46,788 nt of DNA from a virus (taxonomy: Duplodnaviria; Heunggongvirae; Uroviricota; Caudoviricetes), in IMG/VR virus record IMGVR_UViG_2690315742_000007, one strand, 5' to 3'. How positions within the stretch are numbered: the first letter of the stretch is position 1; every line of letters begins with the position of its first letter. Below, piece after piece: positions 35,172 to 40,450 of the stretch. The notes below the pieces were generated by a model. It was not told the origin of the DNA and ran no database searches. It worked only from the letters and a program-made list of their open reading frames with translations. The position numbers and the translations under genes were made by a program.

Positions 35172-35327
35172 TTACTCCTCAGGTTCGTAAGCTGTGAAGA
35201 CAGCGACCTCCGTCTGGCCGGTTCGGATTCGTACCTCGCAGAGGTCTTTCCTCGTTACCAGTGCCGTCACTATGACGGTTAAACAGATGACGATCAGGGC
35301 GATTAACATCGCCTTTTGCTGCTTCAT
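35172..35327 (-). CDS. hokD: Hok-family type I toxin (HokD / RelF)
   Basis: Hand-translated 51 aa: MKQQKAMLIALIVICLTVIVTALVTRKDLCEVRIRTGQTEVAVFTAYEPEE. Confidence 0.8.
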   Translation of the reverse strand: MKQQKAMLIALIVICLTVIVTALVTRKDLCEVRIRTGQTEVAVFTAYEPEE

Positions 35328-35398
35328 AGCCTGCTTCTCCTGTCAACGCAAAGCAGAAGTGTCACCTTCGGTGCGAAACAGAGATGTCATGCTTTGGT

Positions 35399-35686
35399 TC
35401 AGAGAATGCGTTTGACCGCCTCGCTATATACTTCCGAGCGTTCTCTTTTCCCAACAGAAATCACGAAAACGACAACTTTCTCGTCTATAACCTGGTATAC
35501 AAGGCGATAGCCTGAAGACCGGAGCTTAATCTTGTAACAATCAGGCATACCACGGAGCTTGTTTGCTTCAATCCGGGGTGACTTAAGTACTTCAACCAGC
35601 TTCTTTTTCAACTGTTCACGTACCGTCGAGCCCAGCTTTCGCCATTCCTTTAGTGCCCGCTCGTCAAAATCCAGAAAATACGCCAT
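35399..35686 (-). CDS. relE: RelE mRNA interferase toxin
   Basis: 95 aa, MAYFLDFDERALKEWRKLGSTVREQLKKKLVEVLKSPRIEANKLRGMPDCYKIKLRSSGYRLVYQV... Confidence 0.9.
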   Translation of the reverse strand: MAYFLDFDERALKEWRKLGSTVREQLKKKLVEVLKSPRIEANKLRGMPDCYKIKLRSSGYRLVYQVIDEKVVVFVISVGKRERSEVYSEAVKRIL

Positions 35687-35925
35687 CAGAGTTCATCCAG
35701 CGTCACACGTACTGGCTTAGGATTACGAAGCCGTTCTTTCACTATCTCCACAAGTTCAGCATCTTCATCACTCAGGAGTGTCTGTTTGAACGGCAAGCGT
35801 TCATTGTCAGCGATATACTCGAGCATGAGACGAAGCGCTTCAGAAGGAGTTACACCCATTTTTTCAAGCGCGGCGTAAGAACGCGCTTTAAGTTCATCGT
35901 CAATACGCAGGTTAATGCTACCCAT
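35686..35925 (-). CDS. relB: RelB antitoxin
   Basis: 79 aa, MGSINLRIDDELKARSYAALEKMGVTPSEALRLMLEYIADNERLPF...; overlaps the relE start. Confidence 0.9.
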   Translation of the reverse strand: MGSINLRIDDELKARSYAALEKMGVTPSEALRLMLEYIADNERLPFKQTLLSDEDAELVEIVKERLRNPKPVRVTLDEL

Positions 35926-35936
35926 GTCTTACACCT

Positions 35937-35962
35937 CTTGTAATTACAAATGTCATTACAAG
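35937..35962 (-). promoter_or_regulatory. relBE operator/promoter palindromes (relO)
   Basis: CTTGTAAT...ATTACAAG inverted repeat with an inner perfect palindrome TTGTAATTACAA, immediately upstream of relB. Confidence 0.6.
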
Positions 35963-36255
35963 TATCGCACTACAACATGCTTAGGGCAAGTCACGAAGGA
36001 AGTCAGAAAGTAGTCGTAAGAACGGTGATCACTGTCCGCTTTGTGCCAGGAGCAGCCATTGCTAAGTCCATCCTGTATTGTGCAGGTCAGCTCGTTTTTA
36101 AAGAGTCCGGCCATCATCTTACTGGTACAGACACCATATACTTTGTGACGGTCAGGCTACATATGCACAACTCAACTTATTCATCTATTTTTTGCTTTAG
36201 CATGTCAGTGTTGCTTTCTCGTCGGCGGGTGAGCGGTGACCTGACCTGTCGATAA
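35950..36255 (+). CDS. ydfV: Hypothetical protein, possibly YdfV-like
   Basis: 101-aa ORF between relB and flxA; only length and position support it, and its start overlaps the relO palindrome. Confidence 0.3.
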   Translation: MSLQVSHYNMLRASHEGSQKVVVRTVITVRFVPGAAIAKSILYCAGQLVFKESGHHLTGTDTIYFVTVRLHMHNSTYSSIFCFSMSVLLSRRRVSGDLTCR

Positions 36256-36407
36256 AGGAACGTAACACGTTTTATGCAACACCCGCATGCGGCAGAAAAT
36301 TATTGCCGAACGTTTACCCCTGTCAACAAGCTTTACTTTCTGAGGCGCGCCAGCCCGCGAGGAAAACAATCTGAACATCAAACAATTAATGACACAAGAA
36401 ATACGAT

Positions 36408-36434
36408 TAAAGATTTTTTTGTGCATGCCGATAG
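36408..36434 (+). promoter_or_regulatory. Sigma28 (FliA) class-3 promoter upstream of flxA
   Basis: TAAAGATT, 11-nt spacer, GCCGATAG against consensus TAAAGTTT-N11-GCCGATAA; about 25 nt upstream of the flxA ATG. Confidence 0.6.
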
Positions 36435-36457
36435 TGCTTTTTTAAAAGGAGAAATCT

Positions 36458-36790
36458 ATGTCTGTCACAATTCAGGGAAATACCTCAACCGTTATTTCAA
36501 ACAACTCCGCCCCGGAAGGAACATCAGAAATAGCCAAAATCACAAGACAAATTCAGGTGCTGACTGAAAAGCTTGGGAAAATCTCATCGGAAGAGGGGAT
36601 GACGACACAGCAGAAAAAAGAAATGGCTGCATTGGTACAGAAGCAAATTGAAAGCCTCTGGGCTCAACTGGAGCAGTTGTTAAGGCAGCAGGCAGAGAAA
36701 AAGAATGAAGACGCGACAGTTCAGCCTGATAAAAAAGAAGAGAAAAAAGACGATACAAATACCGCTGGCACCATTGATATTTACGTCTAA
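36458..36790 (+). CDS. flxA: FlxA (FliA-regulated protein)
   Basis: 110 aa, MSVTIQGNTSTVISNNSAPEGTSEIAKITRQIQVLTEKLGK... Confidence 0.8.
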   Translation: MSVTIQGNTSTVISNNSAPEGTSEIAKITRQIQVLTEKLGKISSEEGMTTQQKKEMAALVQKQIESLWAQLEQLLRQQAEKKNEDATVQPDKKEEKKDDTNTAGTIDIYV

Positions 36791-36804
36791 GTGACAGCCG
36801 TATT

Positions 36805-36828
36805 GTGGCCCTCATCGGGCCACTTTTC
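36805..36828 (+). terminator. flxA rho-independent terminator
   Basis: GTGGCCC-tcatc-GGGCCAC hairpin followed by TTTT, 15 nt after the flxA stop. Coordinates approximate. Confidence 0.6.
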
Positions 36829-36999
36829 GCCATCAGCCTTTTCTTTAAAGACATATTATCTTTGTATCATTTCTGATAGTTAACATTACAAGATATAAGT
36901 AATGGACGCACTCCCAATTAGTCTATTTAAATCGCCACGAGTTTAACTGACAACCCATGATCAATTATGAATTGCAACTATTTCTGTAGTCACTTTTGT

Positions 37000-38650
37000 G
37001 GGGACAGTCCACAAAACTGCCAACTTCCGCTTCTTGCTCTTAGCGGACATTAGCATAGGCTATTTACCATAACGCCTCATTACGCGCACCGCCCAGACTG
37101 ACTCAGCGCGTTTCTGGCATATCCCCGGTAAAACAAGTAACAAACCACCCGAAAATGAACACCAGAAACGCGACTTAAGAATCTACCCTATGAATGGATA
37201 TGCACTCAACCGAATCGATCTTGGTTTCAATCTTTTTTATCGGGATCAGGCTTCTTTTTAGGTAACTTCGGGGGCTTAACTTGCTGATGACTTTGCGTTC
37301 GGCGCGTAAGCCAGGGATGGTCAGCTTTAGGTTTAACATAGTATTTTGAGCGTAAATCAATACGGGCATTATCCACTCGTTCATGGACACTCTTTTCATC
37401 ATCCAGTGGTATAGGCTCCGGGCCATCAACATACTTTTCCCAGCCCAGCGCTTTCCCGTCATACAGAACGTTAATTTCACCGTCAAAGTTCTCGCATACA
37501 GTAACAACCGAATGCCTAAGTCGATATCCCCGGCCCTCACTGCGTACCTGAAACGCACTGCTTTTGTACTGGAAAGTGAGATTTTTAGACAGAACGCGCT
37601 TCGCCTGTAGGCTGAAGATATAACCCAGTTCCTCTTCAGAATGGTGCACATCAAGATGAGCATTATCAGTAGTACGAGGCGACGTAGCGAACCGGTTGTT
37701 ATAGGCTTCAATAAAGGTCGGCAACCATGCATTTGCTGTTTCAATATCACTGATATTCTGAAGCCGCATTTCTTTGACCAGCCTGTCCTGTAGTGTCTGA
37801 TTGGCGCGCTCTACCCGCCCTTTTGCCTGCGGGCTGTTGGCATGGATTGGCTCGATGCCCAGTGTCTTTATCGCACGAGTGAACTGGGTCAGCTCACCTT
37901 CCCGCTCTGGGTTATTTACCCTGAATATACTGTGTCTATCAGAGTAGAGAGCGAGCGGTACGCCATGATCATTAAGGTAACCCCGGAGGGTTTCCATGTA
38001 AGCCCGGGTTGTTTCAGCAGGCACAAAACGCAACGCCATCAACGCACTGGTGGCATCATCAATGAAAACGATCAGTGTACATCTGGGGCCTCGATTTTCA
38101 AACCAGTCATGAGGTGAGCCATCAATCTGGATCAGTTCACCGTAAGATGGTCGTCGCATGCGGCGTTGATATATACGGGCAATTTTACGACGGCGTTCAC
38201 GCCATAACCCCTCTTCTATCATCCACTTTCTGAGAGTTTCAACGGATAAAGATAAACCGTGTATCTCGCGCAATTTTTCGCACGCAAACGTAGGTCCAAA
38301 ATCAGCGTAACGGCCTTTGAGGAGTGAAATTACTGTTGCTCTGAATTCAGTAGAAAAGGAATTATTAGGACGCTTTCCACGTCGGTGGGAAACCAGACCA
38401 GAAGGCCCTTCATTTCTATACCGTTGCACCAGACGTTTAACCTGCCGAATAGAAATGCCAATGCGTGCCGCAGCTTGTTCCTGAATAATCTGAAGTCGGT
38501 GGAGTTCCTTATGACTCATCGTAACAGTCTCTTTGATCATGAAAAATCCCCCAGAGAATTGTCTGGGGACATTTTAGAATGGTTCAAAGGGGACATTACA
38601 GCTTGGTGTTAACAATAGCCTGCTTCTCCGTGCCTTTCGGCACGTAAGAG
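37000..38650 (-). mobile_element. Probable insertion element carrying the rve transposase; ends not resolved
   Basis: Transposase gene at a position that in K-12 Qin holds integrase and ydfW/ydfX remnants. I could not find clean terminal inverted repeats by eye; hairpin-like GGGGACA motifs occur near both ends. Confidence 0.4.
37227..38540 (-). CDS. DDE (rve/integrase-core) transposase-like protein with N-terminal HTH; IS481-like by architecture
   Basis: 437-aa ORF: N-terminal HTH (IGISIRQVKRLVQRY), central DDE region with a ...SPQAKGRVERANQTL... motif. Family call is from motif pattern only. Confidence 0.65.
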   Translation of the reverse strand: MIKETVTMSHKELHRLQIIQEQAAARIGISIRQVKRLVQRYRNEGPSGLVSHRRGKRPNNSFSTEFRATVISLLKGRYADFGPTFACEKLREIHGLSLSVETLRKWMIEEGLWRERRRKIARIYQRRMRRPSYGELIQIDGSPHDWFENRGPRCTLIVFIDDATSALMALRFVPAETTRAYMETLRGYLNDHGVPLALYSDRHSIFRVNNPEREGELTQFTRAIKTLGIEPIHANSPQAKGRVERANQTLQDRLVKEMRLQNISDIETANAWLPTFIEAYNNRFATSPRTTDNAHLDVHHSEEELGYIFSLQAKRVLSKNLTFQYKSSAFQVRSEGRGYRLRHSVVTVCENFDGEINVLYDGKALGWEKYVDGPEPIPLDDEKSVHERVDNARIDLRSKYYVKPKADHPWLTRRTQSHQQVKPPKLPKKKPDPDKKD

Positions 38651-38874
38651 GCTAACCTACATGTGTCTAGCATGAAATTGGCCTCAGATTAATGTTAAGC
38701 GTCTTGCAGGACGCGTAATGTTAACTGGGGCTTTTCTCTATCTGCCGTTGGTGTCCATGCCCGAGGCAGATAGCCTCAAGCACCCGCAGTCATTCTACTT
38801 AACTAAGATTTCCCCGCAAACCGTTTTTGTCCAGCACAGTAAATATCCAACTAAACCAATGGAGTTCGCTGTAT

Positions 38875-39093
38875 TTACCGCCAGTATTCAATGCACATGA
38901 CCGCCATGAACACCCCTAAAAAAAGGGCATTTATATATCCAAATATTAATATCAAAACATCAACTTTTTCCATATACCTTGCTGTGAAGATGATGGGCAT
39001 ACATGATGCGAACAACCAGAACGCAACAAACAAAAACTGCAATGCGTTTTTCATTATTCCTCCTACAATCAATGTGCAATTACATTTAAACAC
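38875..39093 (-). CDS. Hypothetical small membrane protein (two predicted TM helices)
   Basis: 72-aa ORF, strongly hydrophobic (LQFLFVAFWLFASCMPIIF ... ILIFGYINALFLGVFMAVMCI). No recognisable family. Confidence 0.3.
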   Translation of the reverse strand: MFKCNCTLIVGGIMKNALQFLFVAFWLFASCMPIIFTARYMEKVDVLILIFGYINALFLGVFMAVMCIEYWR

Positions 39094-39099
39094 ACCTCA

Positions 39100-39784
39100 A
39101 TTTGGCCGGACATATAAATATCTAAACCAGAAAAAATCACTTACATAGCGTTACAAACTCTTTAGTCTAAAGGTTCATCGTAAAACATTCCCCATACTTA
39201 TCAGTCCGTTCCGCGCCAGGTAGCTCATTGCCTTATCTGGCAACCTGTAATCAGGTTTCCGCTTTTTCAGTTGGCTGGTCGTTTAACCGACATAGTTAAT
39301 CCATTAATCTAGTTGCCGGATGTTGGTGGATTTTCGCGTTTTAGTTGTTCATAAAAGTGCACAGCTTTAACCAGTTCTTCTGATGTAACTGGGACTGGTG
39401 AGGCAGTGAATAAGGCCTGAATTTGATAGTTCGGCCTGTCGTTACAATCCTCTTTTTTCGGTACATATTTCCAGTCACCAGACCACTACTTCCCCTGAAA
39501 GTCCGTAACGCCTTTTTTCACGTAGCGATATCGCCATGCCACTGGTTTTGCTTGCCCCGCCGTTTCATGCCCTTCCTGATAATTAATCTCGCTCATTCAT
39601 CGCCCCACTCATCACAATATGCTTCGACCGGAGTTTTTCCCGCTTCATAGTCATCACGCTAGGATTCGACATCAGCAGCACTTCCACCGCGTAACTCACC
39701 ATAGTCCATTAATAGTTCATCCCGCTCTTCAAAACTGATGTTATATTTAGCTGAACAAAAATCAGCCACTTTGTTCTTCCTCAT
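39100..39784 (-). pseudogene. Decayed early-region ORF remnants downstream of the ydaT-like gene
   Basis: Minus-strand reading gives a string of short ORFs (40, 23, 35 and about 58 codons) interrupted by stops; the first starts in an ATGA overlap with the ydaT-like stop. No ORF of 60 aa or more on this strand. Confidence 0.35.
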
Positions 39785-40236
39785 CGTCTTTTATTTCGTG
39801 GTATGAGTAATGTTTCACGATCCACTACGGCAGGATCAGCAAAAAGCAGTCCGGACTCCACCACATCGCCATATTCTTTGTTTAACCCGGCGATCATGCA
39901 CGTGATGCTTTTTCCGTCAGTAATTTCACGATACAACCTGAAATCATTAATCCGGATAGCCTCCATAATTGCAGGCACTAGCGCCGTGAACTTTTCACGC
40001 TTATCCCTGGTGTCGATAGCCTTCCAGCGTTCAAATATCTTCACTCGATTAACGCCAAGCGCTCGCTGATCAATCGCGCCACCTTCATATGTGACACGCT
40101 GAACATCGATGTTCGGGCGCTCTTTCAAAGCCCAGAATGCTTCAGTGATTAATATCGTCGCCTGCTCCTGTGTCATTCCTGGTCGACATATCCAGGCATC
40201 CAGAGCCTCACGAGCCTGTTCAGGAGTGATTTTCAT
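39781..40236 (-). CDS. YdaT-like protein, second gene of the dicC (cro-side) operon
   Basis: 151-aa ORF overlapping the dicC 3' end; resembles Rac YdaT (shared ...ALVPAI.../...ALLPAI... region). K-12 Qin has only fragments (ydfX/ydfW) here. Confidence 0.5.
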   Translation of the reverse strand: MKITPEQAREALDAWICRPGMTQEQATILITEAFWALKERPNIDVQRVTYEGGAIDQRALGVNRVKIFERWKAIDTRDKREKFTALVPAIMEAIRINDFRLYREITDGKSITCMIAGLNKEYGDVVESGLLFADPAVVDRETLLIPRNKRR

Positions 40237-40450
40237 TGTTCAACCGCCCCGCCCGCTTCGTCTTACGATATTCATCATAAACTTTGGGATCATACTGAAG
40301 CTCCCCGCCAGATGCCTCCTGTAGACGCATCGCGCGACCTTCGGGAACTAAATCCCCTTTCCAGCTATAAAGCGAAGCCAAACGAATACCTGCTGCTTGT
40401 GCAAGTTTTGTTTTTGAACCGAAATACAAAAGAGCGTCAGTTTTAAGCAT
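40220..40450 (-). CDS. dicC: DicC, Cro-like repressor of the immunity region
   Basis: 76 aa, MLKTDALLYFGSKTKLAQAAGIRLASLYSWKGDLVPEGRAMRLQEASGGELQYDP... Confidence 0.85.
   Translation of the reverse strand: MLKTDALLYFGSKTKLAQAAGIRLASLYSWKGDLVPEGRAMRLQEASGGELQYDPKVYDEYRKTKRAGRLNNENHS

Follow-up and report, generated by a model that had tools for sequence, protein, structure and literature searches.

Does the strongly hydrophobic open reading frame that lies beside a transposase gene in a decayed E. coli prophage encode a protein, and if so, of which kind? The DNA analyzed here (the window) is a stretch of 46,788 nucleotides, IMG/VR virus record IMGVR_UViG_2690315742_000007. An earlier note on this stretch had described a 72-aa frame, 59 aa from the second Met, at positions 38875 to 39093; this frame is present on the minus strand, where 72 codons run open from a GTG and an in-frame ATG follows at 39054. 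By comparing it with a divergent homolog and with its copies in other genomes, we arrived at an explanation that we consider reasonably probable as a whole, namely, that it is a genuine 59-aa gene of an E. coli/Shigella prophage family with a predicted helical-hairpin product and a possible accessory role at the membrane.

Reading frame, start codon, and ribosome-binding site

We use the name ORF59 for the 59-aa form starting at the minus-strand ATG at 39054, the GTG being judged from the sequence not to be the start. In the following, clade A denotes the group to which the window copy belongs and clade B a divergent group described below. The elements of the reading frame are as follows.

38875..39054, minus strand: ORF59 coding sequence, 59 codons plus TAA, kept in frame and length in clade B
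39059..39064, minus strand (reads 39064-39059): Shine-Dalgarno sequence AGGAGG, 4 nt 5' of the ORF59 ATG
39055..39093, minus strand: in-frame GTG extension of ORF59, 13 codons (the 72-aa form), not kept in clade B
38891..39148, plus strand: antisense ORF of 85 aa opposite ORF59, judged not to be a gene

The 59-aa product of ORF59 is MKNALQFLFVAFWLFASCMPIIFTARYMEKVDVLILIFGYINALFLGVFMAVMCIEYWR, and the sequence ahead of its ATG is GTAGGAGGAATAATG. The AGGAGG at 4 nt before the ATG corrects the earlier statement that no strong ribosome-binding site was to be seen. This element varies at 39061, with roughly half of the haplotypes in clade A reading AGGGGG; clade B has CAGGGAC. At the GTG, a GAGGT abuts the start directly with zero spacer. 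Because clade B has a TGA in the equivalent frame, 8 codons before its ATG, the 13-codon extension is not conserved, and 39055..39093 is probably a 5' untranslated region more than coding sequence. Consensus scans, which a weak promoter could escape, revealed no sigma-70-like promoter of its own upstream of ORF59 in clade A or clade B and no promoter-like site on either strand around it, and an Rfam scan found no family over ORF59.

A divergent clade of the same length argues for a coding gene

An exhaustive HMMER search together with a profile search led to a second clade (clade B, P0042/P0037), with the sequence MRKILMYLCISIWIVISCVPIILTSEYLTEASIMALMFGHANALCIGVFISIIYIECWR. It is exactly 59 aa long and aligns with clade A without gaps at 41% identity. 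At the nucleotide level, the two clades are 59% identical, and the ORF is the sole alignable part, its flanks being unalignable. The nucleotide identity at codon positions 1, 2, and 3 is 0.58, 0.71, and 0.47, respectively, and pN between the clades is 0.34 versus a pS of 0.72. The amino acid identity amounts to 0.42 in the sense frame and to 0.31 or less in every one of the remaining five; the antisense frames of clade B are all interrupted, by 2 to 8 stops. In substitution-only simulations of neutral drift (200,000 replicates), start, stop, and open frame survived in 0.27% of the replicates, and 0.56% of these survivors reached 41% identity.

Because clade B has the same length, aligns over the ORF only, diverges with a codon-position bias, and has closed antisense frames, and because of the outcome of the drift simulations, we regard the family as coding. 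Very probably, selection acts on the 59-aa minus-strand ORF as a protein-coding gene, or did so during most of its history. The earlier note had named conservation and synteny in related prophages among the matters to be checked; of 273 full-length clade A copies gathered from genomes, metagenomes, and IMG/VR, 271 have an intact ORF59, and the gene is syntenic in intact lambdoid phages, so that a refutation by nonconservation fails. A frameshift-prone T7 run within ORF59 is intact in at least 120 IMG/VR contigs, with T8 found in none and T6 in two. Among the alleles of clade A, that of the window is the most frequent, and it carries the family-invariant residues.

Predicted membrane hairpin without a curated family

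The ORF59 product has a GRAVY value of 1.27, with two hydrophobic segments and a short polar loop between them, in keeping with its first description as an almost entirely hydrophobic small protein. AlphaFold2, run on a nine-sequence alignment, placed helices at residues 2 to 26 and 28 to 58 with a mean pLDDT of 74, and the hydropathy profile agrees with these two segments. The earlier proposal of a gene for a protein with two transmembrane segments is thus supported by hydropathy and by the predicted hairpin, together with the comparative evidence for coding. We consider it probable on these models that the product forms a helical hairpin in the inner membrane. The N terminus is basic (K2, or R2-K3), and the loop is neutral or acidic, because of which the positive-inside rule favors an N-in/C-in orientation.

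The residues that are invariant in both clades are W13, the stretch S17-C18-x-P20-I-I-x-T24 in helix 1, F38-G39, N42-A43-L44, and G47 in helix 2, and E56-x-W58-R59 at the C terminus. Helix 2 also carries a stripe of small residues along one face, G39-x3-A43-x3-G47-x3-A/S51. The C terminus of ORF59 consists of I-E-Y-W-R only, with no charged tail.

Searches of the 59-aa form, the 72-aa form, and clade B against Pfam, NCBIfam, PHROGs, PADLOC, and PDB sequence profiles gave no match, and in Pfam ORF59 had none even at an E value of 10 or below, including Hok_Gef, GhoT, holin, or any toxin family. A DUF4212 match obtained for clade B only (E value of 0.071, 13.9 bits versus a cutoff of 30) was too weak and was discarded. 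Foldseek comparison of the AlphaFold2 model with BFVD returned generic helical hairpins with a best E value of 0.94, which is uninformative. The peptide strings of clades A and B had no match in the literature searched. A third clade was found neither by tblastn of 50,697 phage records, which contained three carriers, nor by metagenome or GTDB-species scans, and a word-indexed protein search gave near-identical or truncated matches, all from E. coli/Shigella. ORF59 is therefore an orphan relative to curated families only: the label given in the earlier note holds for these databases and fails with regard to clade B, a homolog of the same length at 41% identity. What is new here is an uncurated two-clade family of small phage-encoded membrane proteins, which are themselves a known kind.

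Prophage decay and present-day selection on ORF59

The window region is a Qin-type defective lambdoid prophage. Its gene set comprises rem, hokD, relE, relB, ydfV, flxA, an ISNCY transposase, ORF59, and decayed nin-type ORFs and further includes a ydaT-like gene, dicC (40220-40450), and dicA. Upstream of ORF59 the prophage has lost a segment.

39811..39812, no strand: junction of a 2254-bp deletion relative to the ATCC 8739-type Qin

This deletion took the 3' end of ydaT, an O-like gene, and the genes for DUF977, a methyltransferase, and DUF7167. In K-12 MG1655, a different and larger deletion (window positions 37412-39956) removes ORF59 entirely and joins ydfW to ydfX, which are remnants of the transposase and of ydaT, respectively; clade B is likewise missing from K-12. 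On this comparison, we read the window as an intermediate state in the decay of Qin. Since the upstream operon is truncated by the 2.25-kb deletion and the hok locus is split, as described below, the ORF59 copy of the window may be silent cargo.

A stronger version of this idea is that the family is real, with the window copy and other Qin-type copies being unexpressed, functionless relics that drift neutrally. We hold it to be unlikely. Besides the deletion and the pseudogenes upstream, and the lack of a recognizable promoter of its own, it can draw on the fact that K-12 lost the gene without known consequence and that the changes within clades are nearly all nonsynonymous. Distinct substitutions number 9 nonsynonymous and 1 synonymous in clade A and 3 and 0 in clade B, a total of 12 to 1; with about 20% synonymous sites, this ratio has a P value of about 0.25 against neutrality and of about 5e-4 against an omega of 0.2. 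The within-clade pattern fits neutrality and argues against strong current purifying selection. One copy (L090) has a frameshifted ORF59 along with a mutated Shine-Dalgarno sequence, and truncated and fused variants of ORF59 occur in assemblies.

Against a relic stands the observation that almost every copy has retained an intact ORF with an unaltered T7 run. ORF59 is also 2.5 to 4 times less variable than its immediate flanks; we do not take this low diversity as proof of constraint, since mosaic recombination confounds it, the synonymous sites being nearly invariant too. Clade B has 0 variable sites in eight NCBI genomes versus about 38 in 1.6 kb of flanks. The replacements within clades are mostly conservative, and three of those in clade A (I37M, Y40H, and Y57C) produce the clade B residue. 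This pattern suggests either a limited set of permitted residues or allele exchange.

A low-GC cassette directly upstream of hok

The surroundings of ORF59 on the side of the transposase comprise the following elements.

38833..39174, no strand: ORF59 cassette with its 5' and 3' flanks, about 342 bp, low GC, present or absent as a block
38614..38785, minus strand: hok mRNA 5' leader with the sok antisense region, 172 nt (Rfam RF01794, 104 bits, E value of 3.5e-24)
38790..38826, minus strand: candidate hok promoter TTTGCG-17 nt-TAGAAT, about 50 nt 3' of the ORF59 stop, read against the start of the Rfam model

The GC content of the cassette is 0.35 to 0.38, compared with about 0.45 to 0.5 nearby. 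ORF59 is assigned to a cassette of about 342 bp because phage vB_EcoS-689R5 (L007) keeps the same flanks (window positions up to 38832 and from 39175) 74 nt apart, without window positions 38833-39174. In vB_EcoS-640R1, the order on one strand is O, the DUF977 gene, small nin ORFs, ORF59, hok/sok, rem, ydfU, rusA, and Q. The hok leader/sok of the window and hokW/sokW of phage 933W share 92% identity. The stretch 38790..38826 is a probable hok promoter, one that is absent from the output of the consensus scan. The earlier note had placed the ORF alone between the transposase and the decayed early ORFs; the placement is right, but ORF59 is not alone, since the 172-nt hok leader/sok lies between it and the transposase.

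An intact hok follows ORF59 in 42 loci with an intact ORF, at 438 nt from ATG to ATG, and another 38 loci have the end of the Qin-type transposon in its place. In clade B, a remnant of the 3' half of hok lies 55 nt past the stop (80% identity over 66 nt, E value of 1e-13). About 45 nt 3' of the stop are still recognizably similar between the clades, and hok lies 3' of both; therefore, both alleles appear to fill a slot directly upstream of hok. The clade B site is fixed, with the order ttcA, integrase fragment, ORF, hok remnant, sitCD fragments, uspF, and ompN, and the ORF stays intact in 1045 genomes while the neighboring integrase, hok, and sitCD are fragmentary. Among 100 phage records matching the region, ORF59 occurs in only 3, and most hok-bearing phages are without it. 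The link to hok is positional and not obligatory, because most hok phages lack ORF59 and clade B outlives hok.

Three further features of these neighborhoods were seen. In the ttcA-uspF remnant of B2-type E. coli (L092 4984-7170), no reading frame other than the small ORF is intact, and in one genome (L098), a complete sitABCD operon adjoins the clade B locus. At 39242-39267 (plus strand), between the last nin ORF and the cassette, the window has a terminator-like hairpin, AACCTGTAATCAGGTT, followed by a T run; being opposed to the early operon, it could stop antisense transcripts from entering the nin genes.

Possible roles and relation to known systems

A functional sketch, in which delayed-early expression and the packing of helices through small residues lead to an accessory effect at the membrane, can be offered tentatively and with considerable doubt. 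ORF59 would be a low-GC cassette placed where the nin (delayed-early) region of lambdoid phages ends, in the slot upstream of hok/sok. Because it has no recognizable promoter of its own, expression from the antiterminated early-right transcript after induction or infection is most likely. The product would be an inner-membrane hairpin with helix 1 at about residues 3 to 25, a loop of 8 residues, and helix 2 at about residues 33 to 55, and both the K/R-bearing N terminus and the C-terminal I-E-x-W-R would face the cytoplasm. In helix 1, the conserved S17-C18-x-P20 may act as a kink motif, and helix 2 may oligomerize by packing against itself or may pack onto a protein of the host inner membrane. 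The outcome would be an altered permeability of the membrane or an altered activity of a membrane partner.

Several known systems resemble this picture in part. The pinholin S21-68 of phage 21, a class II holin, is likewise a small two-helix inner-membrane protein of a lambdoid phage, the ORF59 hairpin being predicted, and the second helix of S21-68 has a G-x3-S-x3-G small-residue stripe that serves oligomerization. However, ORF59 lies outside the lysis cassette, with Q downstream beyond hok, rem, ydfU, and rusA, and it has no charged basic C-terminal tail, no conserved dual start, and no Pfam holin match. GhoT, a type V toxin of 57 aa with two transmembrane helices, is of the same size class as the predicted ORF59 hairpin. 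ORF59 differs from GhoT and OrtT in that it has no Pfam match and no adjoining GhoS-like gene, its neighbors being nin ORFs and hok. The Hok/Gef proteins (PF01848) are also small hydrophobic proteins of prophages and plasmids, and ORF59 is linked to hok in both clades; yet Hok has one helix and about 50 aa and is under mok/sok/fbi RNA control, whereas ORF59 precedes the hok promoter, is predicted to have two helices, and shows neither a Hok_Gef match nor an Rfam element.

With the phage exclusion class, represented by T4 Imm (83 aa, two helices), ORF59 shares the predicted form of a short hairpin membrane protein of a phage, but it has no PHROG or PADLOC match and no BFVD structure at an E value below 0.9. 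Superinfection exclusion, which the earlier note had put forward together with membrane depolarization, would fall in this class. With phage morons it shares a low GC content and the insertion of a block of about 342 bp between conserved genes, whereas an own promoter or terminator was not found for ORF59. Phage-beneficial accessory roles, such as the exclusion of other phages, are plausible. The position of ORF59 is the delayed-early stretch from nin to Q beside hok, not a classic immunity-region exclusion locus.

It seems quite unlikely that ORF59 is a partner of hok/sok, gating the insertion or oligomerization of Hok or conferring immunity to it, or else an independent new factor of exclusion or abortive infection; if true, this would account for the two 41%-identical alleles upstream of hok and for the replacement-rich recent changes. 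We give still less credence to a second membrane toxin, type I- or GhoT-like, that would kill or arrest the cell through depolarization, be kept silent by an unrecognized antisense RNA or by lack of transcription, and form a twin addiction or abortive module with hok. The product is indeed small and very hydrophobic, its small-residue stripe is typical of oligomeric pores, and the gene adjoins hok in both clades. The consensus scans, which may miss a weak promoter, and the Rfam scan showed neither an antisense promoter nor an Rfam element over ORF59, and no toxin family matched in Pfam; moreover, the two predicted helices differ from the single helix of known type I toxins, and clade B has remained intact after the decay of hok.

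Distribution, annotation, and the question of a chance frame

Of 5426 complete E. coli genomes, 1567 (29%) carry clade A, counted as ORF DNA at 95% identity or more, and 1045 (19%) carry clade B. Carriers among E. coli include ATCC 8739, O104:H4, Nissle 1917, ATCC 11775, and ST131 strains, and those of clade B include ATCC 11775, Nissle 1917, and JJ1886. As judged from these sequences, the family is restricted to E. coli/Shigella prophages and prophage remnants. PGAP annotation of the ORF is absent from all 70 sampled RefSeq records (40 of clade A and 30 of clade B). ORF59 would thus add a conserved member to the poorly charted small membrane proteins of bacteria and phages, in the form of a gene that standard annotation misses.

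The silence of PGAP would suit the assumption that ORF59 is open by chance, lying in a T-rich, AT-rich spacer between nin and the hok promoter, and is hydrophobic through its T-rich codons and untranslated. When the local 351 nt were shuffled 5000 times, 13.7% of the shuffles contained at least 72 consecutive codons without a stop; the length of ORF59 alone is within chance, and the reality of the ORF rests on comparative data and not on the window. The absence of a family match and of a promoter and the 12:1 excess of nonsynonymous changes point the same way. On the other side, clade B shares start, stop, and length at 59% nucleotide identity with unalignable flanks, and the divergence biased to third positions, the closed antisense frames, the drift simulations, and the canonical Shine-Dalgarno sequence all speak for a gene, which leaves a chance frame very improbable.

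That the true gene is the 85-aa plus-strand ORF (38891-39148), as its annotation in ON470612, ON470619, and PV340562 and the plus-strand terminator-like hairpin at 39242-39267 might suggest, has practically no likelihood and is effectively refuted by clade B; this ORF has no Shine-Dalgarno sequence, a low-complexity product rich in Asn, Thr, and Lys, and stops both in clade B and in L090. The frame appears to be open as a by-product, because its third positions are shared with ORF59. In the three GenBank phage records, it is labeled "hornerin" or "hypothetical protein" (opposite-strand annotation at L004 3284-3535 and L005 4298-4549), and, because the frame is closed in the divergent clade, the plus-strand "hornerin" annotation is very likely a misannotation.

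A transposon has split the hok locus next to ORF59

The hok leader adjoining ORF59 is cut off by a mobile element, whose parts are listed here.

35341..38614, minus strand: IS1202-family (ISNCY, ISEsa1-like) transposon, 3274 bp, with TGT...ACA ends and terminal inverted repeats matching at 22/30 positions
37227-38540, minus strand: transposase, 437 aa, intact (NF033594 at 456 bits)
38615..38629, no strand: right copy of the 15-bp target-site duplication ATAGCCTGCTTCTCC, from comparison with the empty site
35326..35340, no strand: left copy of the 15-bp duplication ATAGCCTGCTTCTCC, which re-creates the Shine-Dalgarno sequence and the "AT" of the hokD ATG
35175..35327, minus strand: hokD coding sequence, now behind relE and parted from its own leader (tblastn, 100%)

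The ends of the transposon were found by comparison with the empty site. The intact hok locus of L054 aligns to the window until ...GGAGAAGCAGGCTAT and breaks off at the third base of the hok ATG, so that the leader in the window is cut exactly at the hok start codon, with ATT instead of ATG; at its empty site, L054 has the 15-mer once. Searching 36800-38700 for plain inverted repeats gave no transposon ends, since this interval does not reach the left end at 35341. The cargo consists of relE, relB, ydfV, and flxA (36458-36790). Members of the IS1202 family have TGT ends, imperfect inverted repeats of about 24 to 26 bp, and a transposase of 400 to 500 aa; direct repeats of 15 to 17 bp characterize the ISTde1 subgroup, and passenger genes occur in a few members (bioRxiv 10.1101/2022.12.17.520857; PMC10132070). 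By its transposase, ends, inverted repeats, and 15-bp direct repeat, the element fits the IS1202 family, probably its ISTde1 type, and PGAP labels the transposase in some genomes as "IS1202-like element ISEsa1 family."

By this comparison, the element that adjoins ORF59 is the orphaned hok leader of a split locus. Because a transposon carrying relBE-ydfV-flxA inserted at the hok start codon, hokD came to lie behind relBE without mok, sok, or its leader. The insertion would explain the relB-relE-hokD (relBEF) arrangement of K-12 and would thereby account for a long-known oddity, that is, hokD (relF) standing behind relBE without its own regulatory RNA elements; the part of the literature covered by a limited search held no account of a transposon splitting hok. 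Full-length copies of the element occur in 760 complete genomes, and K-12 has a truncated copy, with ydfW/intK apparently being the C-terminal remnant of the transposase and not an integrase. In ATCC 8739-type records the transposase is annotated as a pseudogene plus "ydfW," and several IMG/VR copies of it are split at residue 111 or 241.
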